64,000 nt of DNA from an uncultured Acidimicrobiia bacterium (GCA_964195315.1 CAXMOZ010000146.1:10878-74877); one strand, 5' to 3'. Numbered from the stretch's first letter, positions 27,062-46,724 are shown. Translations and numbers: made by a program. The notes: generated by a model not told the origin, from the sequence alone.

Positions 27062-27553
27062 GTGGTTTTTCTGATCCGTTCTTTTTTGTGCTCATTTTGG
27101 TGGATAGGGCTGTTAGTAATATCGCTAACAGCCTGTTCCCCTTCTAATGATCCTGACAGTGTCAATAAAGATGACGTCAGTGGGCAACAAACGAGCAAAA
27201 CTCAGGCCGACTACTTTCTAGAGTCCCTCAAGTTGGTAGAGCAATCAGGCCGCCAACTGCAAAGTGTGGACCGAACAAAAGCATCGGTCGAACAGGCGTT
27301 ATCGGGTATCGATGTTGGTATGTCGCTCGCTTTTAATGTGGACGCCACATTTCTCAATGGGATCGATGTCAGGCTTGGCAAAAATTACCAACGTTATTTC
27401 ATCGATGGCGTACAAATCTATCGTCTTGGAATCGAAGCGGCTGATCAGAACGAACAAAAAAAAGGACTGGTGCTACTTAATCGTTGGGCGCAATTCTGGG
27501 GCAGTAATCAAGCGGCTATATTGCCTAAATTACAATTATATATACCTTCCTAA
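27062..27553 (+). CDS. Hypothetical lipoprotein
   Basis: It has a signal peptide with an LTAC lipobox. No recognisable domain. Confidence 0.5.
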   Translation: MVFLIRSFLCSFWWIGLLVISLTACSPSNDPDSVNKDDVSGQQTSKTQADYFLESLKLVEQSGRQLQSVDRTKASVEQALSGIDVGMSLAFNVDATFLNGIDVRLGKNYQRYFIDGVQIYRLGIEAADQNEQKKGLVLLNRWAQFWGSNQAAILPKLQLYIPS

Positions 27554-27864
27554 TGGCATCTGAGATTTGGCTTGTTGCTTGTATTAATAAGCGGTTCGGC
27601 ACCGGACAACGCTCTTGTGTTGACAGTGGGAACCTCGATTATATTGCCGAAATAGAAACTTTAATTAAACAAGCTGGTTTAGATATTGCCATTATCAAAC
27701 GAGAGTGTTTAGGTAAATGTGATCAGGGGCCAGTCATGCGTATTGCACCTGGAGGCCGTTTTTTTACCGAAATAAATCAAACTAGCCTCCCCGTTATTGT
27801 TTGTGAAATCAAGATGTTAGTAGCTGAGCGCAACGGTATTGACGAAGTGGATGATGCATCGTGA
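27553..27864 (+). CDS. Thioredoxin-like [2Fe-2S] ferredoxin domain protein
   Basis: Its four Cys follow the pattern C-x11-C … C-x3-C (CINKRFGTGQRSC … CLGKC) with a GP motif. Confidence 0.6.
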   Translation: MASEIWLVACINKRFGTGQRSCVDSGNLDYIAEIETLIKQAGLDIAIIKRECLGKCDQGPVMRIAPGGRFFTEINQTSLPVIVCEIKMLVAERNGIDEVDDAS

Positions 27865-28130
27865 AAACTGTCAAAGGATATGTGCCGGGTAGAGTGCAGG
27901 GCGTAGGATTTAGGCACTTCGTGAAAAAGAATGCCGACCTGCTTAATTTTGCAGGCTACGCTAAAAACCGAGGAAATGAGCGAGTCGAGTTTATCTTATA
28001 GGGCGAATCGACGGTTATTTCAAACCTACTTGTGAATATTAGTCGCGGGCCAATATTGGACTTCGTTAAAGCACTGGAATTCGATGAGTTGGATAGCGCC
28101 GAGCAGTACCGAGGGTTTTCAGTTTCATAA
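27861..28130 (+). pseudogene. acyP: Acylphosphatase interrupted by an in-frame TAG at 27999-28001
   Basis: VKTVKGYVPGRVQGVGFRHFV…AGYAKNRGNERVEFIL*GESTVISNLL…EQYRGFSVS matches acylphosphatase motifs (VxGxVQGVxFR, GxxxNxxDGxVE). The GTG start overlaps the upstream stop (GTGA). Confidence 0.6.
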
Positions 28131-28158
28131 TCGTTAAAGCCAATCGTTAAGCCTTAAC

Positions 28159-29013
28159 TCAATCAAAATGAGCTTCTGTCAAAGGGCTGCCATCGTACAG
28201 ATTCTTGAATAATTTAAGCAATTGTGCATTGGAGTCGTTATCGACATTAAGCGCTTTTTCGCCCGACTGAATATCCCGCAAATTGACTGTCCGTGTTTCA
28301 TAGCTAAATCGACTATGTTTAGTAGCGTTAGTACCCGAACCATGCAAATGAGCGGCAGAAAAACACAGTAACTCACCCGGTTTAATCAGCGGTCTAAAAA
28401 CACGACCAGTCGGCTTTTCAAGTACCGATGGAATGGATTTAAAGTTGGGTTTTAATTCATCAAATTGCGCTTGGCGTGCGCTGGCAAATTGCTCATATCG
28501 CCAGTCTGCAGTAGTATTGGCAATCGGCTGTTCAAAGTGATCCAGATAAAACTCAATGCCATTGCCAGCTTCATAGGAATACAGTGGCGCCCACCAGTTT
28601 ATTTGTTGATAAATGCCGGCTCCCCAGGTATCTCGATGAGTATCAACCCAGCTATGTGCGCCTTCAGTCTGATCGCTTTGTGGCGGCACCACTCGAAATA
28701 TGAACCGGTCACAAAATGTGTCGTTGAGCTTTAAACTGATATTTTGCAACGCCTGGGAGAATACCTGCTGACATTGTTGTTCGTTCTGTGCGGCAAGTTG
28801 ATACTGATAAATAGTCTTTAGCCATTGGCTGTAATTCTTAGTCTGATGAGAATTAACTGGATCTAAATTTTCCAGTGTTGATTCACAAATTTGACGTGCA
28901 ATATCACAAAACTGATCGACTTCTGGTATCTGAGTGAAATGTAATATTTCACCACTAAAAACCCGTGCCCGTAACTCGACCTGTGAAATAGGCAAGGTAA
29001 CCTCATATAACAT
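28159..29013 (-). CDS. Hypothetical protein, possibly a non-haem Fe(II) PhyH-like dioxygenase
   Basis: 284 aa. The HxD (WVDTHRD) and distal His (AAHLHGSG) spacing are consistent with a 2-His-1-carboxylate facial triad. It is co-oriented with the MetF-like gene upstream and probably co-transcribed. Confidence 0.4.
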   Translation of the reverse strand: MLYEVTLPISQVELRARVFSGEILHFTQIPEVDQFCDIARQICESTLENLDPVNSHQTKNYSQWLKTIYQYQLAAQNEQQCQQVFSQALQNISLKLNDTFCDRFIFRVVPPQSDQTEGAHSWVDTHRDTWGAGIYQQINWWAPLYSYEAGNGIEFYLDHFEQPIANTTADWRYEQFASARQAQFDELKPNFKSIPSVLEKPTGRVFRPLIKPGELLCFSAAHLHGSGTNATKHSRFSYETRTVNLRDIQSGEKALNVDNDSNAQLLKLFKNLYDGSPLTEAHFD

Positions 29014-29016
29014 GTG

Positions 29017-29934
29017 TCAAACTCTTAGTTGCAGTAAACCAGATTCCGCTATTACCTGCGCGCAAGCGGCTTCTTGATTGGGTGCCATTAAATGTGCACC
29101 AGCACAGCCTTCTATCTGAGAATAGTGTTGTAATAGCTCGGCACAAATTGCGCGACCTTCTGCTTTTTGGTCTGTCGCACCCTCTAACCGATGAATAATA
29201 TCGTCAGGTACATAAACCCCGAATAAATTATCATTCATCCAGCGTGCTGATTTGGCCGATGCTAGTGGGCCGATACCAATAATAAAGTAAGCCCGCTCGG
29301 TGATGCCTTCTTCGACCAGACGATGGCAATAGCGTTTTACGATGCCAGGGTCGAAGCAGTACTGAGTTTGAAAAAATTGAGCGCCATTTTCGATCTTGGC
29401 ATTGATTCTGGCAGTCGACCAATCCTTGCCTGGGTCGGTTGGCACTTCGGCACCGCCGAGAAAAAGTGATGGGGCAGGGTCGATTGCTCTACCCGATGGA
29501 TAACAACCTTTATCTCGCATGTCGCGCATTTGTTGCATTAATTGTCCACTATCAATCTCAAACACTTCAGCGGCCTCGGGCTGGTCGCCAGCAGCCATTT
29601 TATCGCCTGTCAAACATAGAAAGTTGTGGATACCCAAAGCAGAGGCACCGATCACATCGCCTTGTAAGGCTAGTCGATTGCGGTCACGAGTGGTTAGCTG
29701 CAACAACGGATCAATCCCATCGCGGGCCATGATAGCGGCAGCAGCCAATGCCGACATATGTACTCGGGCACTCGCACCATCGGTTACGTTAACCGCATCA
29801 GCAACGCCTTTTAAGCACTGCACTCGCTTCAGTACTGCATCAGCACATGATGCGTCAGGAGGCGACGTTTCAGCCGTCATCGCGAAGTGTCCAGCTAGTA
29901 GAGTTGAATGGAGTTTGCTAATAGTTTGAGACAT
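29017..29934 (-). CDS. Methylenetetrahydrofolate reductase (MetF)-like protein
   Basis: LTTRDRNRLALQGDVIGASALGIHNFLCLTGD is the MTHFR TIM-barrel signature. The start is taken at MSQTIS… (29934). Confidence 0.7.
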   Translation of the reverse strand: MSQTISKLHSTLLAGHFAMTAETSPPDASCADAVLKRVQCLKGVADAVNVTDGASARVHMSALAAAAIMARDGIDPLLQLTTRDRNRLALQGDVIGASALGIHNFLCLTGDKMAAGDQPEAAEVFEIDSGQLMQQMRDMRDKGCYPSGRAIDPAPSLFLGGAEVPTDPGKDWSTARINAKIENGAQFFQTQYCFDPGIVKRYCHRLVEEGITERAYFIIGIGPLASAKSARWMNDNLFGVYVPDDIIHRLEGATDQKAEGRAICAELLQHYSQIEGCAGAHLMAPNQEAACAQVIAESGLLQLRV

Positions 29935-30200
29935 GTTTCCCCCTTGGTTCTTGATGAAGCGCACTGGAATGATTTATTTGAGGTTCATTTTGAAACCTCA
30001 AACAGAGATGTCAAATAGAATAAGGAAAGCACTTAAATTATTCAATTGTCTTTCCTTGGTTTAGTCACTAAATTAGGTGTGCTGCAGGATATCAATTCAC
30101 TACCTAACATCTGCTATCAAATTTTTTACTCCCCCAATTAAAAATTTTATGTTGCTTATGAAGCCTTACCCGTCGAAACTAAATATTCTAATGGAAGGGT

Positions 30201-33140
30201 TTGGATTGCATTTTAATGACAGAGACATCACCAGTAAAAAGCGAAATTAAATCGACCACCTGTTACATGTGTGCCTGTCGGTGTGGTATTAATGTAACAG
30301 TCGACGATGGCGAAGTTCGCTATATCGAAGGCAATCCCAGGCACCCAATTAACAAGGGTGTCATCTGTGCCAAGGGTTCCTCGGGAATAATGAAGCAATA
30401 TTCACCTGCGCGCATTACCAAACCATTACGACGAATACCGGGTGCAGAACGCGGTACGTCCGAGTTCGAAGAGATATCCTGGGAAGAAGCGCTCGATACA
30501 ATTAGTACACGTCTTAACCATATTCGCGAAACTGATCCTAAACAATTTGCACTGTTTACTGGTCGCGATCAGATGCAAGCCTTAACCGGATTGTTTGCAA
30601 AACAATTTGGTACACCAAACTACGCGGCCCATGGTGGTTTTTGTTCGGTGAACATGGCTGCTGGATTAATCTATACCATTGGCGGGTCGTTTTGGGAATT
30701 CGGTGGACCTGATTTGGAACGTTCAAAGTTATTCATCATGATAGGCACCGCCGAAGACCATCACTCAAATCCAATGAAGATGGAGCTTGCTCAGTTCAAA
30801 CGCAATGGCGGAAAATTTATTGCAATTAACCCAGTGCGAACCGGCTATGCTGCCATTGCTGATGAATGGGTGCCAATAAAGCCAGGCACCGATGGCGCTT
30901 TGTTACTTGCTATCAATCACGAAATTATCAAGCAGGGTCTTTATGACCATGACTTTCTATCTAAATACAGCAACTCTCCTGACTTGGTTAATACTGATGA
31001 AGCCAGTGATGCTTTTGGTATGTTTATTCGTTCCATCATAGAGCTCGAAAATAGCAGTGTAGAGCCAGAAAACAAAGTGTGGTGGGATAAACATACTGGG
31101 AAAGAAGTACCCTCACATACACCCGGTGCCGAACCTCGGTTACTGGGTGACTTCGAGCTAGAAGACGGCACGACGGTCAAACCATCTTTCCAGTTATTGA
31201 AAGAGCGGTTAGAGAAATACACGCCAGAATGGGCGGCTGACATTACCGGTATTTCTGCAGAAACGATTCGTCGCTTAGCTCACGAGATGGGTATTGTTGC
31301 CCGCGATGAAACAATTGAGCTTCCCATTCCATGGACTGATACCTGGGGCAATGAGCATGAATCTGTCACTGGTAACCCAGTGTCATTTCATGCCATGAGA
31401 GGCTTAGCGGCTCATTCTAATGGTTTCCAGACTATCCGGTCACTCGGCATATTAATGACGCTATTGGGCACTATCGACCGCCCAGGTGGGTTTCGTCACA
31501 AAGCACCATTCCCACGTCCTATTCCCCCTTGTGCAAAACCACCCAAGTCACCTGAAGATGTTCAACCGGGTGCTCCATTGGAGGGTATGCCCCTTGGTTT
31601 TCCAGCATCACCTGAAGATTTATTTGTCGATGATGAAGGTGGTCCGGTTCGTCTAGACAAAGGGTTCTCCTGGGAATATCCGCTCTCAGTGCATGGTTTA
31701 ATGCACAATGCGATTACTAACGCATGGCGTGGCGATCCTTACCCTATCGATACAATGATGTTGTTCATGGCTAACATGGCCTGGAACTCATCGATGAACA
31801 CGTCTAAGGTTCGTGAAATGTTGACCGACAAGAGAGAAGATGGAGAGTATAAAATTCCATTTTTAATTGTCTGCGATGCTTTCCATTCTGAAACCATAGC
31901 GTTTGCGGATATCGTATTACCCGATACGACTTATCTCGAACGATACGATGCGATGTCAATGCTTGACAGGCCGATCTCTGAGTTTCAGGGTCCTGCTGAT
32001 TCAGTCCGTGTGCCGGTTGTGCCACCCAAAGGTGACTGTCGTCCTTTTCAAGATGTTATTGTCGAATTGGGTTCAAGGCTTAAACTGCCACGTTTTATGA
32101 ATTTTGACGGCACACGTAAATTCAAAGACTACAAAGACTTCGTTATAAATTTCGAAACTGAACTGGGTTCTGGCATTGGTTTTCTAGCGGGCTGGCGCGG
32201 CAAGGACGGAGACAAGTCTATGCGCGGCGAGCCAAACCCTAATCAATGGGAAATGTACGCCAAGAATGATTGTGTTTTTCAGCACGAGTTGCCAAAGTCG
32301 TATCAATACATGCGTAACTGGAACCAGGGTTATCTCAACTGGGCTCAGGATCATAGCCTGATTAAACATACCGACCCTATTAACATCCATGTCTACTCAG
32401 AACTACTTCAAAAATTTCGTTTAGCCGCAGAAGGTAAGCGCGAAGGTCGTCAACCACCCGACCACCTGCGTGAACGAGTCAGGTTACACTTTGACCCGTT
32501 ACCATTTTATTCTGAGCCACTAGAAACAATGACGATAGACAAAGATCTCTACCCATTGAATGCCATAACTCAGCGACCAATGGCGATGTATCATTCCTGG
32601 GATTCTCAAAATGCCTGGTTGCGACAAATTCATGCCCATAATTATTTGGTCATGAGCCCTAGTGTAGGTGCAGATAATGGCTTTGGTGATGGCGACTGGA
32701 TCTGGGTTGAATCTGCCCATGGTAAAGTGAGGTGTATGTGTCGATTCAGTGAATCAGTAGAGCCGGGGACAGTATGGACCTGGAACGCTATTGGTAAAGC
32801 CTCGGGCAGCTGGTCTTTAGATGACAAAGCGAATGAATCGAAAAAAGGTTTTTTGTTAAACCATTTGATTAGCGAAGAGATTCCATCTGGCAAAGGTGAT
32901 GGAATGTATTCAAATTCTGACCCCATTACAGGACAGGCGGCTTGGTACGATCTGCGTGTTCGCGTTTACAAGGCGGGTGATGACGAGCCAAAAGAAACAT
33001 CGCCACAATTCGACACAATGAAACGAGTGCCTGGTATGGAACCCGCTCGTGGCCTATGGCAATCATTTGCAAAGGGTTTGCTTAACGGTGTATCAAAGAA
33101 AGATGTTTCAAATAACGGTTCTTCTAAGAAGAAGGGGTAG
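30201..33140 (+). CDS. soeA: Molybdopterin (bis-MGD) oxidoreductase catalytic subunit with no Tat signal, consistent with sulfite dehydrogenase (quinone) SoeA
   Basis: The N-terminal CYMCACRCGINV…CAKG is a 4Fe-4S cluster motif of the Mo-bisPGD family. 979 aa. There is no RR twin-arginine motif. It is followed by an FeS subunit and an NrfD-like subunit. Confidence 0.7.
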   Translation: MDCILMTETSPVKSEIKSTTCYMCACRCGINVTVDDGEVRYIEGNPRHPINKGVICAKGSSGIMKQYSPARITKPLRRIPGAERGTSEFEEISWEEALDTISTRLNHIRETDPKQFALFTGRDQMQALTGLFAKQFGTPNYAAHGGFCSVNMAAGLIYTIGGSFWEFGGPDLERSKLFIMIGTAEDHHSNPMKMELAQFKRNGGKFIAINPVRTGYAAIADEWVPIKPGTDGALLLAINHEIIKQGLYDHDFLSKYSNSPDLVNTDEASDAFGMFIRSIIELENSSVEPENKVWWDKHTGKEVPSHTPGAEPRLLGDFELEDGTTVKPSFQLLKERLEKYTPEWAADITGISAETIRRLAHEMGIVARDETIELPIPWTDTWGNEHESVTGNPVSFHAMRGLAAHSNGFQTIRSLGILMTLLGTIDRPGGFRHKAPFPRPIPPCAKPPKSPEDVQPGAPLEGMPLGFPASPEDLFVDDEGGPVRLDKGFSWEYPLSVHGLMHNAITNAWRGDPYPIDTMMLFMANMAWNSSMNTSKVREMLTDKREDGEYKIPFLIVCDAFHSETIAFADIVLPDTTYLERYDAMSMLDRPISEFQGPADSVRVPVVPPKGDCRPFQDVIVELGSRLKLPRFMNFDGTRKFKDYKDFVINFETELGSGIGFLAGWRGKDGDKSMRGEPNPNQWEMYAKNDCVFQHELPKSYQYMRNWNQGYLNWAQDHSLIKHTDPINIHVYSELLQKFRLAAEGKREGRQPPDHLRERVRLHFDPLPFYSEPLETMTIDKDLYPLNAITQRPMAMYHSWDSQNAWLRQIHAHNYLVMSPSVGADNGFGDGDWIWVESAHGKVRCMCRFSESVEPGTVWTWNAIGKASGSWSLDDKANESKKGFLLNHLISEEIPSGKGDGMYSNSDPITGQAAWYDLRVRVYKAGDDEPKETSPQFDTMKRVPGMEPARGLWQSFAKGLLNGVSKKDVSNNGSSKKKG

Positions 33141-33143
33141 ACT

Positions 33144-33878
33144 ATGACACAACTGGCACTAGTGATTGATTTAAATACCTGCGTCGGCTGTCATGCCTGC
33201 GTAACCAGCTGCAAAGAATGGAACACATCGGGAGAAGCAGGCCCGATGACAGATAAGAACCCTTACGGTGCTGACCCAACGGGCAACTTTTTTAATCGAG
33301 TTCAAACGTTTGAAGTTGGGTCCTTTCCAGAGACTGAAACCATTCACTTTCCAAAGTCATGTTTGCATTGTGAAGAGCCACCCTGTGTTCCAGTATGCCC
33401 AACCGGTGCGAGTTATAAACGGCCAGAAGATGGCATCGTATTGATCGATTATGATAAGTGCATTGGCTGTGAGTACTGCGCTTGGGCCTGTCCTTATGGC
33501 GCCAGAGAGTTTGATGAAAAAGAAAAGGTAATGAAAAAGTGTACCTTATGTGTTGATCGAATATACGATGAGGAATTACCAGAATCTCTACGTAAACCCG
33601 CCTGTGTTTTAGCTTGCCCAACGAGTGCGCGAATTTTTGGCGATGTACACGATCCAGCTTCAGAAGCCTCAATTGCGATCAATTTATCAAATGGCTATCA
33701 GTTAATGCCAGAGTGGGGCACGCAAGCAGCAAACCATTACCTTCCTCGACGAAAAGTGGACATTAAGCTACATGAAGAGGATTTGATGCGCTCGTCTAAC
33801 CCGCTTGATAAAGAGGATCGAGGTCCGAGACAGCCGTCGACTAGTTCGACGCTTGATGACTCTGCGGCCTCTTGGTAA
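33144..33878 (+). CDS. soeB: 4Fe-4S ferredoxin-type electron-transfer subunit (SoeB-like)
   Basis: It has four Cys clusters (CVGCHACVTSC, CLHCEEPPCVPVCP, CIGCEYCAWACP, CTLCVDR…CVLACP). 244 aa. Confidence 0.75.
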   Translation: MTQLALVIDLNTCVGCHACVTSCKEWNTSGEAGPMTDKNPYGADPTGNFFNRVQTFEVGSFPETETIHFPKSCLHCEEPPCVPVCPTGASYKRPEDGIVLIDYDKCIGCEYCAWACPYGAREFDEKEKVMKKCTLCVDRIYDEELPESLRKPACVLACPTSARIFGDVHDPASEASIAINLSNGYQLMPEWGTQAANHYLPRRKVDIKLHEEDLMRSSNPLDKEDRGPRQPSTSSTLDDSAASW

Positions 33879-33939
33879 CGTTTGATAATCCTTGTGAGTC
33901 AATACCTCTGATCAGTCACACTTAGATGAATACTAAACT

Positions 33940-34914
33940 ATGAAACCTGCAATATCTGTCATTCTACTCACGACTTTAATTGGTGTCGCTCAGGGCCTAT
34001 TTTTGGCTTATTACAGCGCCGAGTTACTCTCCCTACTGTTAATCCTACCTAATCAAGAGTTGGTAGGGTCAGGCCTTGCTGGAGTGGTCAGTGTTGTGCT
34101 CTTGGTGGGTGGTTTGATTGCATCATTCTTTCATTTGGGACATCCCGAACGCGCATGGCGTGCTGCTACTATGTGGCGTACATCATGGTTATCACGCGAA
34201 GTAATTGCATTGCCAATAGCGATGGGCTTAGTGTTTATTTATAGCGCATTAAAACTGATGGGTAATCACCACATTATGTTTAATTTGGGTAATGGTAGTC
34301 AGGTAGAGCTGGCAACCGTGGTTGGTTTTTTCGCAATGATTGCAGTTTTCGCCCTGTTTATTTGCACCGCGATGATTTACAGCTGCCTTAAATTTCTACG
34401 CCAATGGTATAGCCCGCTCACCGTGTTAAATTTTTTCCTGATGGGCTGTGCATCAGGGTTCGTACTGGCAAGTGCTTTGGCAGCTTATTATGATCCACAG
34501 GTTTTTGGCTATATATCGGGTGCTGCTATAGTTCTTAGTGTTGCAGCCTTGGCCTCGAGATACGCTTCATTGGTTCGTAATAAAAACTTACGTAGCCCAA
34601 GCACATTGCAAACAGCAATTGGTGTCCATCATCCAAATATTAGGCAGATAGCACAGGGCGCTATGGGGGGTAGTTATAATACCAGAGCCTTTATCCACAC
34701 TTATGGTCCAGCAGTGGTTAAATTGGCTCGGCGGTTCTTTCTAGTGGCCGGTTTTATTATTCCTATCTTGTTACTAGCCATTAGTAATGAATCTCCAATA
34801 GTGATCTGTTCATTGGCATTTTTGATTCAATACACTGGGTTGCTAGCCGAGCGATGGTACTTTTTTATAGAAGCTGAACATCCGCAAAATCTATACTATC
34901 AAATGATTACCTAG
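33940..34914 (+). CDS. soeC: NrfD/PsrC-family integral membrane quinone-interacting subunit (SoeC-like)
   Basis: 324 aa with about 8 hydrophobic helices. It lies immediately downstream of the FeS subunit. Confidence 0.7.
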   Translation: MKPAISVILLTTLIGVAQGLFLAYYSAELLSLLLILPNQELVGSGLAGVVSVVLLVGGLIASFFHLGHPERAWRAATMWRTSWLSREVIALPIAMGLVFIYSALKLMGNHHIMFNLGNGSQVELATVVGFFAMIAVFALFICTAMIYSCLKFLRQWYSPLTVLNFFLMGCASGFVLASALAAYYDPQVFGYISGAAIVLSVAALASRYASLVRNKNLRSPSTLQTAIGVHHPNIRQIAQGAMGGSYNTRAFIHTYGPAVVKLARRFFLVAGFIIPILLLAISNESPIVICSLAFLIQYTGLLAERWYFFIEAEHPQNLYYQMIT

Positions 34915-36623: not shown

Positions 36624-37325
36624 TTAAGCTTTAGCTTTGCCTTTTTCAGGCGTTGCTATTAACCGTTTAGCGATTGACGAGGCATCCTTTAAATGAGCCT
36701 CTACAGCCGCTCGAGTCGCTTTTACATCGCCATTTATAATTGCGTTGCAAATGGCCTTCATGTGGGTATGCCCGGATACATGGCGGTCTGAAGTAGATAG
36801 GGTCATGACTCGTAATCGGCTGATTCGTCCATTCAGTCGTTGAACAATTTCCCAAGCAATTAAATGTCCCGCTTCTTCAAAAATGACTTTATAAAATCCA
36901 GTTGTTGCCTTAAATAGTGCTTTAGGGGTGCCTTCTACGAATGCAGATTCAAGTTCTATTAAAGCCAAATTTAAGTGTTTTGCTAATTCAGTCGATGTTT
37001 TTTTAGCGCAATCGACTGCTGCGCTGGTCTCAAGCAAAAGCCGTATGTCATAAATTTGTTGGGCATGTTCCCAGTTCATGGTTGCAACGATAGGGCCCTT
37101 GTTCGTTAGAATTTCAACTAAGCCCTCTGCTTCCAAATAACGAATAGTTTCTCGTATGACTGTACGGCTAACGCCCAGCTGGTCACACAGTGGTCGTTCT
37201 ATCAAGCGTTCGCCTGGCTCAAAGTGGCCTTCAATAATAGCCTCGCGCAGGCGCTCCTGGACTATCTCTCTAAGTGTCTGAGGCGATGCTGCTGCTTTTA
37301 AATAGGATCCTTCTGGTTGACTCAA
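36624..37325 (-). CDS. GntR-family transcriptional regulator (FadR/FCD subfamily)
   Basis: The N-terminal wHTH is ERPLCDQLGVSRTVIRETIRYLEAEGLV and the C-terminal domain is all-helical. It is divergent from the monooxygenase operon. Confidence 0.85.
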   Translation of the reverse strand: MSQPEGSYLKAAASPQTLREIVQERLREAIIEGHFEPGERLIERPLCDQLGVSRTVIRETIRYLEAEGLVEILTNKGPIVATMNWEHAQQIYDIRLLLETSAAVDCAKKTSTELAKHLNLALIELESAFVEGTPKALFKATTGFYKVIFEEAGHLIAWEIVQRLNGRISRLRVMTLSTSDRHVSGHTHMKAICNAIINGDVKATRAAVEAHLKDASSIAKRLIATPEKGKAKA

Positions 37326-37447
37326 GTGATATTGCTCATGGATAATAATTTCCCTTTTTCGTAAAAAGCATCTTTTCTTTTTGACTCAAGTATTATGGTA
37401 TACCATAATACTATATAGTTAAAATGCTAATTGATTAGGACTGACAG

Positions 37448-38050
37448 ATGCCCGCTGAAATACGAAAAACATTACTTCATGTTGAAAACACTTTCATTGA
37501 AGGTGGCAAAGCTGCAAAAACGCCTTTAAAACTAATAGCGGCTCTCGCTGTAATCAAAAATCCCTGGGCAGGTCAGGGGTTTGTTGAAAATTTGCGACCC
37601 GCCATTCAAGACTGCGCTCCGGGATTGGGTGCGCTGCTAACCGAAATGATATTGGAAGCCGCTGGTGGGGGAGATAAAGTCGAGGGTTATGGTAAGACCG
37701 CAATTGTCGGCATGAATGGCGAAGTCGAGCATGCCTCTGCTTTGATCCACACATTACGTTTCGGTAATCATTACCGTGATGCAGTGGGAGCGAAATCTTA
37801 TCTTGCATTCTGTAATACCCGTGGACCAGCCAATGCAGCGGTAATGATTCCACTGATGGATAAAAATGATGGTGGACGACGATCCCACTACCTCACTATT
37901 CAATTGTCGGTTGCTGATGCGCCGGGTGCTGATGAGATTGTTCTTGGGCTAGGTGCTTCTATTGGTGGTCGACCACATCACAGAATCGGTGATCGTTACC
38001 AAGATTTAAAAGAGTTAGGACATGACATCGATAACCCTGCAGCTGTCTGA
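37448..38050 (+). CDS. Small conserved protein, possibly the 'amino acid synthesis' family (PF06684-like)
   Basis: 200 aa, Gly-rich, no TM. The family assignment is from memory and is uncertain. Confidence 0.45.
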   Translation: MPAEIRKTLLHVENTFIEGGKAAKTPLKLIAALAVIKNPWAGQGFVENLRPAIQDCAPGLGALLTEMILEAAGGGDKVEGYGKTAIVGMNGEVEHASALIHTLRFGNHYRDAVGAKSYLAFCNTRGPANAAVMIPLMDKNDGGRRSHYLTIQLSVADAPGADEIVLGLGASIGGRPHHRIGDRYQDLKELGHDIDNPAAV

Positions 38051-38912
38051 TTCCATCTCGGCCAACTATGGCACCTTGTCCTATCGTGAGTTAGGTCCTA
38101 GAGACATAGACCAGCGAGAAATAGGAAAGGCTGAGCCTTTAGTGTTGGTCCACGGGGTTGGTATGCAATCAGCTGCATGGGGCCCCCAGATCGACTACTT
38201 TAGTCAGTCGATGCGAGTAATAGCGATTGATATGCCAGGACATGGTGGCAGCAGTGCGTTACCGCCAGAGGCGGAGTTAGCCGATTATATCGATTGGCTT
38301 TTCTCTGCAATCACAGCACTTGATACTGGCCCGATTAACCTTGCCGGGCACTCGATGGGTGCGCTCATTGCTGGTGGCTTCGCCATTTGTCACCCCAATC
38401 TTACTCGACGTGTGGCAGTGTTGAACGGTGTTCACAATAGAACCGCAGCGGCGCGTACTGCGGTTGAAGCGCGGTCGGCAGAAATTGATCTCGGTAAGAT
38501 CGACATTCATACGCCGTTGGCTCGATGGTTTGATGAATCTGATCGTGCTGCGCGTGAATTAGTGCGTGGCTGGCTGATGGCTATCGACCTAAAAGGTTAC
38601 GCTACTGCCTATCGAGCTTTTGCTAGGGGTGATCGAACTTTTGCATCACGCTGGTCGGAAGTGACTTGCCCAATGCTAGCGTTAACCGGTGATGAAGATT
38701 TAAATTCAACATCTGAAATGTCACAAGCTATGGCGGCTGCAGCGATCAACGGTCGAGCAGAGGTACTGGTCGGTCATCGTCACATGTTGAATTTGACAGC
38801 GCCTGATGCGGTTAATATCATCCTCAAAGATTGGCTCGCCACACCCCTGTCCAATAAACAGATGGCCAGCAACATACTCAACAAACCAGAATCGGAGGTT
38901 TTACTAAAATGA
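38022..38912 (+). CDS. Alpha/beta-fold hydrolase
   Basis: It has the oxyanion HG motif PLVLVHGVG and the nucleophile elbow GHSMG, with a C-terminal His. Confidence 0.75.
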   Translation: MTSITLQLSDSISANYGTLSYRELGPRDIDQREIGKAEPLVLVHGVGMQSAAWGPQIDYFSQSMRVIAIDMPGHGGSSALPPEAELADYIDWLFSAITALDTGPINLAGHSMGALIAGGFAICHPNLTRRVAVLNGVHNRTAAARTAVEARSAEIDLGKIDIHTPLARWFDESDRAARELVRGWLMAIDLKGYATAYRAFARGDRTFASRWSEVTCPMLALTGDEDLNSTSEMSQAMAAAAINGRAEVLVGHRHMLNLTAPDAVNIILKDWLATPLSNKQMASNILNKPESEVLLK

Positions 38913-39832
38913 CTCAATTCGACCCGCGCGCTTTGCGTGAAGCCTTTGGCAGTTTTATGACTGGGGTTACCGTCGTCACTACTCATGACGTCAACAACAA
39001 TCCGATGGGTTTTACCGCTAATTCATTTACCAGCGTGTCGATTGATCCACCCTTGGTATTGGTTTGCATGGCGAATAGCTCGACTAATTATGATGCGTTA
39101 GTCAATTCGGATCGTTTCGCGATTAATGTTCTCTGCGAACAACAAAAAGAAGTGTCAAATACCTTCGCCCGACCAGTCGAAGATCGGTTTAGCTCGGTAA
39201 ACTGGCGAAAAGGTCCCCACGGTTCACCGATACTCGAAGAGGTATCTGCCTGGTTTGATTGTTCCAGCTATAAACAGGTAGAAGCAGGTGATCACATTAT
39301 TCTGATTGGCAAAGTAGAAGCATTTGAAGCGAATTCAGCGCCAGGGCTTGGTTATTCTCGTGGTGCTTATGTGGCCCCATCAATGGAGGCGGAGTCAATT
39401 TCACAACGCACGGATGTCGTCGTTTCCGCCTTAATAGAACATTCGGGTGATGTGTTCTTTCAGCAAGATGGTCAGGGTGGCCTGAATTTGCCATCTGAAA
39501 CGGTTGGCAAAGAGGGTGCTACTGCCACTCTGGAGCATCTGATCAATCAGAATGATACGGATGCAAAACCAGGTTTTATCTACTCGGTGTTCGAGGTCAT
39601 TGACAAAGAGCAACAACACATTTCTTTTTTATGTCAGGCTGCCGACGGTACCTCTGGGAAAGGTTTCTTCTTGGCATTGACGCCAGAAACCTTATCTAAA
39701 GTAGCAGACTCGGCAGTACGGATTATGCTCGAGCGGTTTGCCAGAGAGAGCAAGCTTGGCAACTACGGCCTGTATTTTGGCAATCAAAGCAGCGGCGAAG
39801 TACGCCCTATTGTGAAGGAGAACAGATCATGA
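38909..39832 (+). CDS. NAD(P)H-flavin reductase (HpaC/NtaB-type) fused to a C-terminal domain of unknown function of about 150 aa
   Basis: FGSFMTGVTVVTT…GFTANSFTSVSIDPPLVLVC is the flavin reductase signature. 307 aa. It overlaps the neighbouring ORFs, indicating an operon. Confidence 0.75.
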   Translation: MTQFDPRALREAFGSFMTGVTVVTTHDVNNNPMGFTANSFTSVSIDPPLVLVCMANSSTNYDALVNSDRFAINVLCEQQKEVSNTFARPVEDRFSSVNWRKGPHGSPILEEVSAWFDCSSYKQVEAGDHIILIGKVEAFEANSAPGLGYSRGAYVAPSMEAESISQRTDVVVSALIEHSGDVFFQQDGQGGLNLPSETVGKEGATATLEHLINQNDTDAKPGFIYSVFEVIDKEQQHISFLCQAADGTSGKGFFLALTPETLSKVADSAVRIMLERFARESKLGNYGLYFGNQSSGEVRPIVKENRS

Positions 39833-40866
39833 AATTTTCGTTATTTGCACATATGGAACGAGTCACGGCAGATGAAAGTCAAGAGCAGTTATACGAGGAA
39901 TTTATTCAACTCTGTGAAATAGCCGATCAGGGTGGCATGCACGCCATCTGGACAGGTGAACATCATGGTATGGATTTCACCATATCCCCAAACCCATTCA
40001 TTAATTTAGTCGATCTGGCACGCCGCACCAAAAATGTACGTCTCGGAACAGGCACCATCGTGGCCCCATTTTGGCACCCTATTAAACTGGCTGGCGAAGC
40101 AGCGATGGCAGATTTGATTATGAATGGTCGGCTTGATTTGGGCATCGCACGCGGTGCCTACTCATTTGAATATGAGCGGTTGAGCCCCGGGCTTGATGCC
40201 TGGCAAGCCGGGCAGAAAATGCGGGAACTGATACCTGCTGTACAGAAACTATGGGAAGGGGATTACACCCACGATGGTGAATTTTGGCAGTTTCCAAAAA
40301 CAACATCTTCACCCAAACCAAAGCAAAGTCCTCATCCCCCTATTTGGGTAGCGGCACGTGACCCTAGCAGTCACGAGTTTGCTGTGTCGAATGGTTGCAA
40401 TGTGCAGGTAACGCCACTATGGAATGATGATGGCGAAGTTGTGGATTTAATGGGTAAGTTTAATGATGCCTGCGAGCACAACGCCCATATGCCGCGCCCA
40501 AAAATCATGTTGCTGCGACATACCTATGTCGCAGACAGCGAACAAGATGCCCAGTTAGGTGCAGAGCAAATGAACCGGTTTTATAATTTTTTCGGCGCCT
40601 GGTTTATGAATAAAAAACCAATTTCACAAGGCTTGATAGAAGCCCCAACCGACGAAGAAATTGCAAACAACCCAATGTTTTCAGCCGCGAGTCACCGTAA
40701 AAGCAGTGTAATAGGGGAAGCACAAGAGGTCATAGGTAGGCTCAAGGCATATCAAGAGCTGGGTTACGACGAATTCGCTTTCTGGATTGATTCTGGCATG
40801 ACCTTCGAACGAAAAAAAGCCTCACTCGAACGGTTTATTAAAGATGTAATGCCTGCTTTTAATTAA
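39829..40866 (+). CDS. LLM-class (bacterial luciferase-like, LuxA-like) flavin-dependent monooxygenase
   Basis: MKFSLF…WTGEHHGMDFTISPNPF…LGTGTIVAPFWHPIKLAGEAAMADLIMNGRLDLGIARG follows the LuxA/LLM pattern. 345 aa. Confidence 0.8.
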   Translation: MKFSLFAHMERVTADESQEQLYEEFIQLCEIADQGGMHAIWTGEHHGMDFTISPNPFINLVDLARRTKNVRLGTGTIVAPFWHPIKLAGEAAMADLIMNGRLDLGIARGAYSFEYERLSPGLDAWQAGQKMRELIPAVQKLWEGDYTHDGEFWQFPKTTSSPKPKQSPHPPIWVAARDPSSHEFAVSNGCNVQVTPLWNDDGEVVDLMGKFNDACEHNAHMPRPKIMLLRHTYVADSEQDAQLGAEQMNRFYNFFGAWFMNKKPISQGLIEAPTDEEIANNPMFSAASHRKSSVIGEAQEVIGRLKAYQELGYDEFAFWIDSGMTFERKKASLERFIKDVMPAFN

Positions 40867-40915
40867 TGATGAGATTGTTAGTTAAAAAGTCAGATAAAAT
40901 AAGGTAGTTCAAAAA

Positions 40916-42382
40916 ATGCAAAAATTCCAACAATATATTGACGGCCAATTTAGTGATGGCTCAGCACAGTTTCCCAGCGTGGACCCTGCAACAGGACAAG
41001 CATGGGCCTTAATGCCAGAAGCAAAAGTAGATGATGTCAACGCTGCGGTAGAAGCCGCTGATCGAGCATTGTATTCGGCTGAGTGGGCCAACTTGACTGC
41101 AACATCACGAGGCAAGTTATTGTATAAGTTAGCTAGTCTGGTTGAGGAAAATGCAACCAGACTAGCTGAGCTAGAGACCCGGGATACCGGCAAAATTATT
41201 CGAGAGACCAGTGCCCAAATAGCTTATGTAGCCGAATACTATCGTTATTACGCTGGGTTGGCGGACAAAATTGAAGGCAAACACTTACCCATCGATAAAC
41301 CCGATATGGAAGTATGGTTACGCCGAGAACCGATAGGCGTTGTCGCAGCGATAGTACCCTGGAATTCACAGTTATTTCTTTCTGCAGTAAAGCTAGGTCC
41401 TGCACTGGCAGCGGGTTGTACCATAGTATTAAAAGCCTCCGAAGAAGGACCTGCGCCAATGCTAGAGTTTGCTCGACTCGTGCATGAAGCGGGTTTCCCT
41501 GCCGGTGTTGTGAATATCCTCACTGGCTTTGGCGCAGACTGTGGTTCGGTTTTAACATCGCATCAAAAAGTTGATCATGTCGCTTTCACTGGTGGCCCGG
41601 AAACCGCTCGCCATATCGTTCGGAACTCAGCACAAAATCTGGCGTCGACTTCATTAGAGCTAGGCGGAAAATCACCTTTTATCGTATTTGATGATGCTGA
41701 TATCGATAGTGCTGTTAATGCACAGGTATCTGCTATTTTTGCTGCCACGGGTCAAAGCTGTGTCGCGGGTTCTCGATTGATTATCAACCATAAAATCAAA
41801 GATGAGTTTCTGTCCAAACTAGTTGAAAAAGCCAAAGCAGTCATCATTGGCGACCCACAGGACATGGCAACAGAAATAGGGCCTCTATGCACTGTCAAAC
41901 AACGTGATCACGCATTGAGCATCATTGATGCCTCTATAAAAGAAGGTGCCAGGTTACTCACAGGTGGGGTTGCGATTGAAGGTGATGGCTTTTATTTCCC
42001 CCCCACTATTATTGATTGCAGCGATGTGCCCAACGCCGCCTGTGTTAAAACAGAGTTTTTTGGCCCAGTACTATCAGTGGTTAGTTTTGATAGCGAAGAA
42101 GAGGCATTACAACTGTCCAACGATACAGTCTATGGTTTGGCGTCCGGCGTCTTTACTCAAAACCTAACACGAGCACACCGCATGATTCGTGGCATTCGCG
42201 CTGGTATCGTATGGGTCAACACCTATCGAGTAGTTAGTCCCATTGCACCATTTGGCGGTCAAGGTATGTCAGGCCATGGACGCGAAGGCGGACTGGACGC
42301 GGCACTGGATTACACCAAAATAAAGTCAGTTTGGTTACGCACATCGGATGATGCCATTCCTGATCCGTTTGTGATGCGCTGA
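40916..42382 (+). CDS. NAD(P)-dependent aldehyde dehydrogenase
   Basis: ELGGKSP (catalytic Glu) and GQSCVAGSR (catalytic Cys). 488 aa. Confidence 0.9.
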   Translation: MQKFQQYIDGQFSDGSAQFPSVDPATGQAWALMPEAKVDDVNAAVEAADRALYSAEWANLTATSRGKLLYKLASLVEENATRLAELETRDTGKIIRETSAQIAYVAEYYRYYAGLADKIEGKHLPIDKPDMEVWLRREPIGVVAAIVPWNSQLFLSAVKLGPALAAGCTIVLKASEEGPAPMLEFARLVHEAGFPAGVVNILTGFGADCGSVLTSHQKVDHVAFTGGPETARHIVRNSAQNLASTSLELGGKSPFIVFDDADIDSAVNAQVSAIFAATGQSCVAGSRLIINHKIKDEFLSKLVEKAKAVIIGDPQDMATEIGPLCTVKQRDHALSIIDASIKEGARLLTGGVAIEGDGFYFPPTIIDCSDVPNAACVKTEFFGPVLSVVSFDSEEEALQLSNDTVYGLASGVFTQNLTRAHRMIRGIRAGIVWVNTYRVVSPIAPFGGQGMSGHGREGGLDAALDYTKIKSVWLRTSDDAIPDPFVMR

Positions 42383-43556: not shown

Positions 43557-44159
43557 CTACTCATCGTAAGGCTCAATCGAGTCAACACTCATGGTGTAGG
43601 CCGAATGCACTTCCAGGCTATTCGCAACACCTGACTCATTAAGCAGGCTGTTTGAACGACTTGTTTGCAGTGTACCGGTAATCCAGACAGGTTGATAAAT
43701 GTCGCTGAACTCAGTTTCTGCTTTTAATTGACCAAAGATTATTTGATTGGCAGGTGGCGGCGGAGTATGGGTACAGGCACCAAAGTAGGGCACCAGTAAA
43801 AACTCTCTCAGTAATGTGTTGCTAAATTCTAGGGGCAATACGAAACCAGGAATCTTTACCCGTTTACCATCCAGTTCATCATTGACGGGCGCGGCATCGA
43901 ACTTTGCCTGGACTTCTTCCTCCAGGCGCAGCAGTTCATCGTCAGAAAGCGCGTTGTACTGCTGATCTGTCATGTCTTCAAAAACCTTGGTCGGGTTCCA
44001 GTCGGGCGGCGCCAAACTCCCCCACTGTATTTTTTCTGGATCAGTTAGATTCGAATCAGCCGCAAACGCACTGTTAAAACTCAGGCAGGATAATAGGAAA
44101 ATAATAAGTTGGCACTTTAAAGACCACTGAATGTTTTGCACTTTTTTATCCTGTTTCAT
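43557..44159 (-). CDS. DUF3299-family exported protein, fourth gene of the putative Zn-uptake cluster (ZrgD-like?)
   Basis: It has a signal peptide and overlaps the permease stop. DUF3299 characteristically accompanies FtsX-type ABC systems. Confidence 0.55.
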   Translation of the reverse strand: MKQDKKVQNIQWSLKCQLIIFLLSCLSFNSAFAADSNLTDPEKIQWGSLAPPDWNPTKVFEDMTDQQYNALSDDELLRLEEEVQAKFDAAPVNDELDGKRVKIPGFVLPLEFSNTLLREFLLVPYFGACTHTPPPPANQIIFGQLKAETEFSDIYQPVWITGTLQTSRSNSLLNESGVANSLEVHSAYTMSVDSIEPYDE

Positions 44160-45406
44160 AGTCGGGTAGACATACCGTCAGCCAGTGAGTTCTGATAAGC
44201 CCGATACGCTGGGACCAGGCCGACGATAAAACCAGTGACGAGTAAAATCGAGACCATCAATATCTCTCTCTCATTGGGTAGAGTGATGGGTATGAATAAG
44301 CCGTAATTCGCTTCTATGATTGGTTGGCTTAACCCGAGTGCGGAATATAGTAGAACTATTCCAAGCAATATGCCTGCTATCGTTAATAACAGGGTCTCGG
44401 TGATCAGTAAGCCCATAATATGCCAATGGCTAGCCCCAACAGAGCGTAAAATGGCGACTTCACGCCTGCGTTCATTTAGCCCCGCAAGAGAGACTGCTAG
44501 CATTCCCGTGAGCGATGCCAATACAACAAATAGAGAAATAATCAATAGTGCCTTTTCTGCTACCGACATTAAGCTCCATAGTTCGAGCAGTGCAATACCG
44601 GGGAAAATGGCAAGCAGTGGTTCATCAGTGTATTCGTTAACATAGCGCTGAAGCCTGAATGATGTGACTTTGTTTTCGAGCCCTACTAGAAATGCTGTAA
44701 TAGACTTGGGTTGTAGGTTGGACTCTGATAAAGTTTTACCGAACTTTCTTTTGTTAACCGCGCTTTGCCAGTTGATGTGCATGGCTTCGATACCGGCGAG
44801 GCTGACATGAACTGTCCTGTCTACGGGTGTTCCTGTATGTTCTAAGATACCGCTAATGACGAATGGTTTATCTTTGTGTTCAGAAAAACTAGTGCTCACA
44901 GTACCGTGTGAAATGACTACCTCATCACCGATAGAATAGCTTAATGATCTTGCGACTTCTGAGCCGACGACGGTATCAAATACATCGTCGAAAGGTTTAC
45001 CTGAAGCGAGTTGAAGTTTTCGTTTTTGGCCATACTGGTAAAAAGCGAAATAATCTTTGCTAGTCCCCATAACACGAAAACCACGATGTGAATCGCCGAG
45101 TGATATAGGAATCGTCCATTTGACTCCTTTTTTTTGTGCGATAGCCTGGTAACTATCCCAGCTAATATTATTGGTGGCACTGCCTATTCTAAATACGGAA
45201 TAGAGCAATAGCTGAATTGACCCACTGCGCGCACCGACAATAAGGTCTGTTCCTGAAATAGTATTCGCAAAACTACTTTGAGCGTTAACTCGAATTTTCT
45301 CGACACCGAGCAAAAGAACGACACTCACAGCAATAGAGACAATAGTTAATATTGCAGTCGAGTGTCGTCTACATAAACTTTTCCAGGCGAGCATTCGAAG
45401 ATTCAT
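44156..45406 (-). CDS. ABC transporter permease, FtsX/MacB-like
   Basis: It has four TM helices with a large periplasmic loop and a C-terminal FtsX helical bundle. 416 aa. Confidence 0.8.
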   Translation of the reverse strand: MNLRMLAWKSLCRRHSTAILTIVSIAVSVVLLLGVEKIRVNAQSSFANTISGTDLIVGARSGSIQLLLYSVFRIGSATNNISWDSYQAIAQKKGVKWTIPISLGDSHRGFRVMGTSKDYFAFYQYGQKRKLQLASGKPFDDVFDTVVGSEVARSLSYSIGDEVVISHGTVSTSFSEHKDKPFVISGILEHTGTPVDRTVHVSLAGIEAMHINWQSAVNKRKFGKTLSESNLQPKSITAFLVGLENKVTSFRLQRYVNEYTDEPLLAIFPGIALLELWSLMSVAEKALLIISLFVVLASLTGMLAVSLAGLNERRREVAILRSVGASHWHIMGLLITETLLLTIAGILLGIVLLYSALGLSQPIIEANYGLFIPITLPNEREILMVSILLVTGFIVGLVPAYRAYQNSLADGMSTRL

Positions 45407-46128
45407 AAGTCTCCCGAGGCATGGGCACTTATTGATGACATTTCAACTACTCGATCAAACAGAGGCTTGTGGGTCGGATCGTGACTGACATATAGCAATG
45501 TAGAACCGCTGGTCTTAACCTCATCAAACAGCAGTGCCATGAACGCCTGTCGTGAATCATAATCAAGGGACGATGTAGGCTCATCAGCAATAATCAATTG
45601 AGGCTGACCAATCAGCGCCCGAGCGGCTGCCACGCGTTGTTGTTGGCCGACACTTAACTCACTAGTGCTGCGGTCAAAACCAATCGTTGCATCTGAATAC
45701 AAACGATTAAGTAAATAAATGGCTTCGTTAGCAACTGATCCGGAGCGCTCAATAGCATTCTGGCGCCTCACATCAGAAAATCGGCAGGGTAGGGTGACAT
45801 TCTCCAAAATAGATAAATAGGGAATTAGGTTGAACTGTTGGAAGATAAAACCAATGCTGTCTGCTCGAACTCTGTCGCGCTGTAACTCTTTAAGTTTTAG
45901 AAAGTCTTGCCCCACAACCTCAACCTGGCCCTTTTGTGGAGTGACAATACCGCCGATAATATTGAGCAACGTTGATTTGCCAGACCCTGATGCGCCTTGA
46001 ATGAATACATGCTCATGTCTGTCGATGCTTAGCTTACCAGATTGAATGCTGGGGCTTGCTTTGGCATGCCAGCTAAACTCGACATTCTGCAGTCGGATTA
46101 ACGGAGCCTTTAATTCTGATGAATTCAT
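45403..46128 (-). CDS. ABC transporter ATP-binding protein
   Basis: Walker A GASGSGKST, signature LSVGQQQR, Walker B LIIADEPTSSLD. Confidence 0.9.
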   Translation of the reverse strand: MNSSELKAPLIRLQNVEFSWHAKASPSIQSGKLSIDRHEHVFIQGASGSGKSTLLNIIGGIVTPQKGQVEVVGQDFLKLKELQRDRVRADSIGFIFQQFNLIPYLSILENVTLPCRFSDVRRQNAIERSGSVANEAIYLLNRLYSDATIGFDRSTSELSVGQQQRVAAARALIGQPQLIIADEPTSSLDYDSRQAFMALLFDEVKTSGSTLLYVSHDPTHKPLFDRVVEMSSISAHASGDL

Positions 46129-46694
46129 TCGTTGTTCAATTTAATGATCGAGTTATCTATCGTTAATGTTTGCTTAGTTTGACCCAAAGAATCAATGACC
46201 TGAACGTCTACTTTATTGATGGCAGGAAATAGTGCCATTAGTTGAACATCGATCGCAGTTAAACGATCGGCCTGTTCGCATTGCAAGTCGAATTCCGCCA
46301 AAAACTCTGCATGTTCAGCCTTAAGGGTTTCATCTTTATGTTCGTCATGATCTGAATGTTCGTCATGATCTGAGACCCAATTTGAAAAAGATCGAAGCAC
46401 CTTACATTCTGGTTTTCCACGCAATTTAAAAGCAGTATCAAAGCTAGAGAGCTTACTTTTAGCATCGGTAATTAAAGATCTCTGCTCTTCATCGTTAGGA
46501 GCGTACTCAAAACCTACGATATTAGCGGCCGGTGACTCGAAGCGAATAGCAATCACATTGTCATCTATTGCAATGTCGAGGCTTGCGCTACCATGCTCAT
46601 GTGAATCTAGCGTCTCACTCGCTAATGTTTGAAACGTGGTCAGGCTCATAAGCGAGCTGAGCAATACGATGGTAATAGGTTTAATAGTTTTCAT
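46125..46694 (-). CDS. His-rich periplasmic protein, candidate metal (Zn)-binding component (ZrgA-like?)
   Basis: The signal peptide is MKTIKPITIVLLSSLMSLTTFQTLA. There are His-rich acidic repeats SDHDEHSDHDEHKDE. The track ORF start at 46781 would run across the operator, so the shorter start is preferred. Confidence 0.6.
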   Translation of the reverse strand: MKTIKPITIVLLSSLMSLTTFQTLASETLDSHEHGSASLDIAIDDNVIAIRFESPAANIVGFEYAPNDEEQRSLITDAKSKLSSFDTAFKLRGKPECKVLRSFSNWVSDHDEHSDHDEHKDETLKAEHAEFLAEFDLQCEQADRLTAIDVQLMALFPAINKVDVQVIDSLGQTKQTLTIDNSIIKLNNE

Positions 46695-46709
46695 GATGTC
46701 CGCATAAAT

Positions 46710-46724
46710 TGTTATAACATAACA
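46710..46724. promoter_or_regulatory. Zur-box-like operator upstream of the His-rich protein/ABC operon
   Basis: TGTTATAACATAACA (minus strand TGTTATGTTATAACA) matches the gammaproteobacterial Zur consensus TGTTATAnTATAACA at 14/15 positions. It lies 15-30 nt upstream of the ATG. Confidence 0.55.

Follow-up and report, generated by a model that had tools for sequence, protein, structure and literature searches.

In the 64,000-nucleotide stretch of bacterial DNA analysed here (GCA_964195315.1, CAXMOZ010000146.1:10878-74877; hereafter the window, within which all positions are counted), three consecutive genes very probably encode SoeABC, a membrane-bound sulfite:quinone oxidoreductase that faces the cytoplasm and is one of the complex iron-sulfur molybdoenzymes (CISM). 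This enzyme was first proposed in Ruegeria pomeroyi; it was shown genetically in Allochromatium vinosum, as outlined by Dahl et al. (2013), and characterised biochemically in Aquifex, as outlined by Boughanemi et al. (2020). An earlier reading of the DNA without database searches (the sequence-only reading) had proposed the same identity, which is now backed by 72-75% identity of the catalytic subunit to the NCBI-named SoeA of Chromatiaceae and its placement with named SoeA in a tree, by a conserved operon, by the absence of a twin-arginine translocation (Tat) motif and by an inverted charge distribution in the anchor SoeC. The system is a typical copy of a known and widely distributed enzyme, a standard member of its family.

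Relationship to named sulfite dehydrogenases

Over 97-98% of its length, the catalytic subunit SoeA shows 72-76% identity to proteins that carry the NCBI name 'sulfite dehydrogenase subunit SoeA', from Thiocystis violacea, Thiocapsa, Thiococcus pfennigii, Thiorhodococcus minor and Sulfurivermis fontis. With the JGI entries called 'sulfite dehydrogenase (quinone) subunit SoeA' the identity is 73-82%, and the closest relative, locus L001, reaches 93%. A neighbour-joining tree of 89 sequences nests the window protein in a tight clade of named SoeA and not with DmsA, whose Escherichia coli representative is 28.7% identical. Within this clade it belongs to a subclade with L001-L012, which derive from uncultured marine Gammaproteobacteria and one Granulosicoccaceae chromosome. 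The order soeA-soeB-soeC is kept in 71 of the 80 related loci, that is, in all those with enough sequence. These include Thioalkalivibrio sulfidiphilus (L052), whose SoeA is 72% identical and whose soeABC genes have been assigned by BLAST to A. vinosum SoeABC.

Operon structure and start of soeA

Three + strand open reading frames (ORFs) of 979, 244 and 324 amino acids, at 30201-33140, 33144-33878 and 33940-34914, emerged from the ORF read-out exactly as the sequence-only reading had described them. They are co-oriented in the order catalytic, iron-sulfur and anchor subunit, with gaps of 3 nt between soeA and soeB and 61 nt between soeB and soeC. The first frame is open from a TTG at 30201 (979 residues), and an ATG at 30216 gives a protein of 974 residues beginning MTETSPV. 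The gene was also called independently with 974 residues on a metagenome contig of identical sequence (L082), homologue N-termini in 80 genomes begin at the equivalent Met, and ATG 30216 is most likely the true start. Looked up exactly in the contig index, the 974-residue SoeA gave no hit; it was the identical SoeC (P0121) that led to the source contig. With this start, soeA (30216..33140, + strand) would encode a molybdenum-bis(pyranopterin guanine dinucleotide) (Mo-bisPGD) catalytic subunit of 974 residues and 109.3 kDa, identified by its Pfam domains, its orthologues and the gene call in L082; SoeA residue numbers below refer to this form. The sequence read directly 5' of the ORF contains an in-frame TAA (30189..30191, + strand), and a longer N-terminus, or a Tat signal concealed behind an earlier start, is therefore impossible. 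A cryptic Tat start, considered as a candidate, was rejected on this ground.

We infer that the 251-bp divergent intergenic region upstream of soeA (29965..30215) must hold the soeABC promoter. A promoter scan returned 12 promoter-like sites against 11.0 expected, none of them on the + strand 5' of soeA. A terminator scan around the operon found none, and repeat, Rfam and tRNA scans around it revealed nothing relevant.

Cofactor motifs and export signals

Pfam recognises three domains in SoeA, namely Molybdop_Fe4S4 (residues 18-67 of the 979-residue form), Molybdopterin and Molydop_binding. The sequence-only reading had described an FS0 [4Fe-4S] motif without a twin-arginine signal, and both points stand. 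The motif (30261..30368, + strand) reads C16-x2-C19-x3-C23-x27-C51, its four cysteines being invariant in 81 of 81 sequences. Cys143 (codon at 30642..30644, + strand) is likewise invariant (81/81) and in a HMMER alignment falls on the Cys of the S-L-C-T segment of Thermus PsrA (2VPW_A), which is reportedly the molybdenum ligand of that protein (Jormakka et al. 2008); Cys143 is the predicted molybdenum ligand of SoeA. Selenocysteine was ruled out, given an ORF with no in-frame TGA and a Cys at the PsrA-aligned ligand position.

Tat signals were judged by inspection of motifs, with E. coli proteins as controls. Only 15 residues, hydrophilic in character, precede the first FS0 cysteine, and no RR pair occurs among the first 60 residues. 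Across the 80 related loci the corresponding N-terminus comprises 12-35 residues, with a Tat motif in none; RR pairs occur there only 5' of the probable Met or right before the cysteines, without a hydrophobic stretch. The same inspection recognised an S-R-R-x-L/F motif in each of the positive controls, E. coli DmsA, YnfE, YnfF and NrfC.

The second gene, soeB (33144..33878, + strand), encodes a four-cluster [4Fe-4S] electron-transfer subunit of 244 residues and 27.1 kDa (Pfam Fer4_11 and others), in agreement with the sequence-only reading. Its 16 cysteines form four ferredoxin-type groups (C13/16/19/23, C73/76/81/85, C106/109/112/116 and C133/136/154/158) and are all invariant in 75 of 75 sequences. 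SoeB begins directly with the first cluster motif and has neither a signal peptide nor the RR motif of the NrfC control. Since both SoeA and SoeB are devoid of Tat signals, both should remain in the cytoplasm.

The C-terminus of SoeA (window 33090-33140) is a Lys/Ser-rich tail (...VSKKDVSNNGSSKKKG) that lies outside the homologue alignments. Query coverage for SoeA is 97-99%, and the match to L001 stops at residue 961 of 974.

The membrane anchor and its predicted orientation

The third gene, soeC (33940..34914, + strand), encodes a putatively quinone-binding, haem-less anchor of 324 residues and 35.5 kDa. It had been described as an NrfD-type subunit with eight transmembrane segments, a description that holds in the broad sense, by fold and by published grouping; at the level of Pfam, however, the match is to DmsC (PF04976, 54 bits, E 2e-14) rather than NrfD (PF03916). 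SoeC contains eight hydrophobic segments, and its AlphaFold model has eight long helices (predicted template modelling score, pTM, 0.81). Among solved structures, Foldseek matches this model best to ActC (alternative complex III) and PsrC (polysulfide reductase). SoeC, DmsC, NrfD and PsrC are grouped together as NrfD-like in a published survey (PMC8076601), and the anchor thus stays within this wider family.

The distribution of Lys and Arg along SoeC is uneven: the two termini together with loops 2, 4 and 6 hold 15 such residues, whereas loops 1, 3, 5 and 7 hold none. For 71 SoeC orthologues the means on the same two sides are 17.3 and 1.2. The opposite bias is found in E. coli DmsC (4 vs 8) and NrfD (5 vs 12), whose partner subunits face the periplasm, as fits their charges. 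By the positive-inside rule, SoeC is predicted to be oriented N-in/C-in, inverted relative to DmsC, NrfD and PsrC. This inversion was earlier predicted from the missing Tat signal alone (PMC8076601), and the charge bias over 71 orthologues lends that prediction simple and independent support from sequence.

Residues S6, H65, S82, S85 and E87 of SoeC are invariant or nearly so among orthologues, and correspond in type and number to five of the six residues proposed to form the quinone site of Aquifex SoeC. Under the predicted topology they would be situated at the cytoplasmic face.

Related molybdoenzymes as alternatives

Labels given by JGI and NCBI to identical or near-identical proteins imply a periplasm-facing, quinol-oxidising reductase of the Psr/Phs/Ttr/Dms type. 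Such an enzyme would also accord with the best curated profile for the catalytic subunit (PhsA), with its closest solved structure (Thermus PsrA, 168 bits in two local stretches) and with an anchor that matches Pfam DmsC. However, a Tat signal is missing and there is no room for one, the protein is far closer to named SoeA (72-75% identity) than to DmsA (28.7%), the charge bias of the anchor is opposite to that of DmsC and NrfD, and a Cys at the ligand position in an ORF without in-frame TGA leaves no selenocysteine. All curated NCBIfam models for other molybdoenzymes score, moreover, far below their cut-offs, both the catalytic models (PhsA 241 vs 694 bits, DmsA/YnfE (TIGR02166) 169 vs 778, DmsA 118 vs 1600, TtrA 124 vs 1750 and NarG 41 vs 1084) and the iron-sulfur models (TtrB 137 vs 416, DmsB 135 vs 214 and NarH 80.5 vs 524). 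These searches agree with the sequence-only reading, which had set the enzyme apart from such types. We give the periplasmic reductase a negligible chance of being correct, and regard it as effectively refuted. NarGHI is ruled out by the NarG and NarH scores, and by an anchor that is DmsC/NrfD-like and not NarI.

Several points nevertheless weigh against the assignment to SoeABC. No model for SoeA, SoeB or SoeC turned up in the NCBIfam scan, and thus no curated cut-off was passed. The link to Alvin_2491, aq_1234 and SPO3559 runs through orthologues named by NCBI or JGI, and the role attributed to the protein and to its marine subclade would be that of characterised homologues. A profile built from 19 SoeC orthologues matched no solved NrfD-like chain among the sequences of the Protein Data Bank (PDB), its only hit being a spurious one to multicystatin. 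As this search was uninformative, kinship with NrfD was tested by structure prediction and fold search, and the latter scores cytochrome bd subunits similarly to the NrfD-like matches. Finally, no sulfite-producing pathway is visible within the 64-kb window. A HMMER search found no SoeABC structure among solved structures, and the literature search gave no match for Alvin_2491 by name, nor for Granulosicoccus together with soeABC.

Proposed mechanism

Gene content, cofactor motifs, missing export signals, orthology to named SoeA, operon conservation, the fold of the anchor and its charge bias are shown by the analysis. By analogy with the homologues studied genetically in A. vinosum and biochemically in Aquifex aeolicus, SoeA would convert cytoplasmic sulfite to sulfate at its Mo-bisPGD centre, where Cys143 would be the protein ligand. 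The two electrons would pass through SoeA's FS0 cluster and then the four [4Fe-4S] clusters in SoeB to a quinone in the membrane, and the quinol formed would enter the respiratory chain. The predicted N-in/C-in topology of SoeC would turn the face bearing the iron-sulfur docking surface and the quinone site inward.

Because the Aquifex enzyme also works as a reductase in vitro, the direction of catalysis is a formal caveat. It is conceivable that the window enzyme is SoeABC by descent and acts mainly reductively or on another sulfur oxyanion, with quinol as the donor, in cytoplasmic tetrathionate, thiosulfate or sulfur reduction. The genetics of A. vinosum point instead to sulfite oxidation as the physiological role, no variation is seen at the active-site and cluster residues throughout the clade, window protein included, and nothing in the window hints at anaerobic sulfur respiration; we judge a reductive role very unlikely.

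Comparison with characterised systems

The SoeABC of A. vinosum (Alvin_2491-2489) has the same soeA-B-C operon, Tat-less Mo-bisPGD subunit with FS0, four-cluster iron-sulfur subunit and 8-TM (transmembrane) NrfD/PsrC-like anchor, with subunits of a similar mass (~109, 27 and 35.5 kDa). In contrast to this purple sulfur bacterium, the host of the window is read as an uncultured marine gammaproteobacterium with ~44% G+C. Its SoeA lies in the separate subclade L001-L012, the likeness being traced through other named SoeA of Chromatiaceae (72-75%), and dsr, sox and apr genes are missing from the 64 kb. The same architecture is found, according to Boughanemi et al. (2020), in Aquifex aeolicus (aq_1234, aq_1232 and aq_1231), an organism phylogenetically distant from that of the window. 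The five quinone-site residues shared with aq_1231 were matched by residue type and number, and the sixth, T132, is replaced by Ala in the window SoeC.

Ruegeria pomeroyi (SPO3559-3557) and SAR116 offer a comparable setting, marine and probably heterotrophic or mixotrophic; there SoeABC is considered to remove sulfite from the cytoplasm, sulfonate-derived sulfite among it. Whereas the R. pomeroyi genes adjoin the taurine-related pta and tauR, no recognised sulfonate gene is adjacent to soeABC in the window. Thermus thermophilus PsrABC (2VPW/2VPZ) provides the closest solved structure to SoeA and a Cys ligand to molybdenum at the aligned position. The similarity is only local, and PsrA is Tat-exported, faces the periplasm and uses quinol to reduce polysulfide, whereas SoeC is predicted to be inverted. 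E. coli DmsABC shares the three-subunit CISM layout and an anchor in Pfam DmsC, but DmsA carries a Tat signal (RRGLV) and is distant in sequence, and the charges of DmsC (4 vs 8) run against those of SoeC (15 vs 0). The molybdenum ligand of DmsA is a Ser.

The main value of the assignment is one of annotation. In public databases, identical or near-identical SoeC and SoeA proteins (P0121, P0123, P0243 and P0244) carry the labels 'DMSO reductase anchor subunit' and 'anaerobic selenocysteine-containing dehydrogenase'. Such labels wrongly hint at anaerobic dimethyl sulfoxide (DMSO) or selenate respiration, and the proper names would be soeABC. One uncultured marine lineage, gammaproteobacterial in our reading, would thereby join the organisms that oxidise sulfite directly to sulfate in the cytoplasm with a link to quinone. 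Current understanding of sulfur metabolism is unchanged, the system being already known. A SoeC with 90% identity has been assigned to a metagenome-assembled genome of Urechidicola sp. (Flavobacteriaceae), probably through a binning error.

Upstream genes and the source of sulfite

Two genes lie divergently upstream of soeABC (28159-29964, - strand). The sequence-only reading had described them as a MetF-like methylenetetrahydrofolate reductase (MTHFR) and a PhyH-like oxygenase. The first label is supported by Pfam (MTHFR, 105 bits). The second is sub-threshold by sequence (PhyH, 18.7 bits, cut-off 22) and draws its support from fold and invariant residues. The 284-residue protein has an invariant H126-x-D128...H224 and R235, and an AlphaFold2 (AF2) model with a predicted local distance difference test (pLDDT) of 94, the best fold matches of which are PhyH-class Fe(II)/2-oxoglutarate dioxygenases (PtlH, SptF, SyrB2, PHYHD1 and EctD). 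The family is rare: out of 5.8 billion proteins, only ~112 are homologues at E<=1e-3, and every one is annotated as hypothetical. The PhyH-like gene is operonic with the MTHFR-like gene, and recurs within L086 7088-8858 and L087 8001-13778.

From these neighbours, and from a flavin-monooxygenase operon downstream, the sequence-only reading had suggested that the sulfite stems from the catabolism of organosulfur or methylated sulfur compounds, and not from lithotrophy alone. In a coupled system of this kind, one or both gene groups would degrade such compounds and deliver sulfite to SoeABC. The genes are indeed physically close, here and in the identical contig L082, and SoeABC is described as handling sulfonate-derived sulfite in some marine heterotrophs; that idea is already published, and such a supply, were it real here, would bring nothing new. 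The comparison of loci speaks against coupling. In L001, argG lies ~0.9 kb from soeA, and soeABC is intact; the ferredoxin-like, PhyH-like and MTHFR-like genes are gone, and only the first ~62 codons of a 163-residue ORF are retained. Comparison of window 27062-30200 with L001 9071-10000 shows ~2.3 kb to be absent from L001, comprising most of the 163-residue ORF, a 103-residue ORF for a thioredoxin-like [2Fe-2S] ferredoxin-like protein and both divergent genes, PhyH-like and MTHFR-like. As the more distant relative L086 keeps these genes, a deletion in the L001 lineage is the simplest explanation. The region from argG to soeABC is syntenic, and the adjacency of the gene pair to soeABC in this genome resembles the outcome of a local deletion in that region.

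In L007, L010 and L086, MTHFR is ~7 kb from soeA, with a class II 3-deoxy-D-arabino-heptulosonate 7-phosphate (DAHP) synthase and a Liv-type ABC transporter in between. L087 and L088 have the PhyH-like gene near another MTHFR and 5-formyltetrahydrofolate cyclo-ligase, with no soe genes, and the gene is present in none of the 80 soeA loci. The loss in L001, the ~7-kb separation, the soe-free folate contexts and the absence from the 80 loci together indicate that the pair is not a partner of soeABC. The pairing or proximity of MTHFR and PhyH-like genes recurs in unrelated contexts, which suggests a function linked to folate or one-carbon (C1) metabolism. A bolder idea is that the PhyH-like dioxygenase and the MTHFR-like protein act together, as a module so far uncharacterised, to demethylate or oxygenate some methylated organosulfur compound, and that they lie beside soeABC because sulfite is released. 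This would amount to a new route from methylated sulfur to sulfate, and appears highly improbable. In a weaker variant, the marine SoeABC subclade L001-L012 would mark an unrecognised group of heterotrophic sulfite oxidisers.

Downstream operon

A flavin-monooxygenase operon is present downstream, as reported by the sequence-only reading; it is GntR-regulated, includes a flavin reductase and a luciferase-like monooxygenase, and starts 2.5 kb 3' of soeABC. With its divergent GntR/FCD regulator it occupies 36624-42382, and encodes a PF06684 (AA_synth) protein, an alpha/beta hydrolase, a 307-residue flavin reductase, the luciferase-like monooxygenase and an aldehyde dehydrogenase. At scores below the cut-offs, the hydrolase resembles PcaD and the aldehyde dehydrogenase resembles betaine-aldehyde dehydrogenase. 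The best match of the monooxygenase is the MupA/Atu3671 family (120 bits vs 244), and its identification as SsuD, SfnG or MsuD was rejected by the curated cut-offs (SsuD 33 bits vs 518, SfnG 50 vs 383). Judged from these profiles, the operon is not a recognised sulfonate system. Among the related loci compared, it is common to L001 only.

In L001 (14925-17578), a DUF1330 gene and a 94-residue ORF 3' of soeC are replaced by three genes, which encode a TetR/BetI-type regulator, a TauD/TfdA-family dioxygenase and a class II aldolase. A TauD-family dioxygenase 1 kb 3' of soeC could be taken as a further sign of an organosulfur supply. However, this protein has a gamma-butyrobetaine-hydroxylase-type N-domain and was rejected as a taurine dioxygenase; the gene is absent from the window. 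With the pair lost in L001 and separated elsewhere, and a monooxygenase that is not SsuD, SfnG or MsuD, the claim that the neighbours point to organosulfur-derived sulfite was not upheld, and we rate the functional coupling of SoeABC to these genes as very unlikely.

Another reading is chemolithotrophic sulfur oxidation, in which SoeABC would act on sulfite from rDsr or sHdr, themselves encoded in other parts of the genome, as is the case for Allochromatium and Thioalkalivibrio. Among named relatives with 71-76% identity, sulfur oxidisers are in the majority (Chromatiaceae, Thioalkalivibrio, Gallionellaceae, Thiohalomonadales and a Solemya symbiont), and the literature includes soeABC in the core sulfur-oxidation gene set of such organisms. 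On the other hand, dsr, sox, apr, hdr, tusA and dsrE genes are all missing from the 64-kb window, as they are from the annotated soeABC flanks of L001, L010 and L011, and the subclade L001-L012, to which a Granulosicoccaceae genome belongs, stands apart from the lithotroph clades. We consider lithotrophy possible but less likely than not. The window sequence itself indicates neither lithotrophy nor organosulfur catabolism.

Other features of the window

Housekeeping genes surround the SoeABC genes, which form an operon of their own. The remainder of the window carries map, rpsB, tsf, pyrH, frr, uppS, cdsA, dxr, rseP, bamA, tsaB, truD, argG, ppc, tsaE and an amiC-like gene. A 650-residue protein with a 'sulfatase' domain (47829-49781) was rejected as a sulfur gene, as it resembles phosphoglycerol transferase or LtaS-type enzymes. 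No tRNA genes were found in the 64 kb, and the sole Rfam match in the window is a t44 RNA (RF00127, 55.9 bits) at 2474-2575 (+ strand), right 5' of rpsB. A protein of 1654 residues, encoded between housekeeping genes at 15651-20615 (+ strand), combines N-terminal NHL/six-bladed beta-propeller repeats with a long TPR array. Finally, a four-gene cluster at 43557-46781 (- strand) encodes a ZrgA-family protein, an ABC ATPase, an FtsX/MacB-type permease and a DUF3299 protein, and is probably a zinc-related uptake or efflux system.

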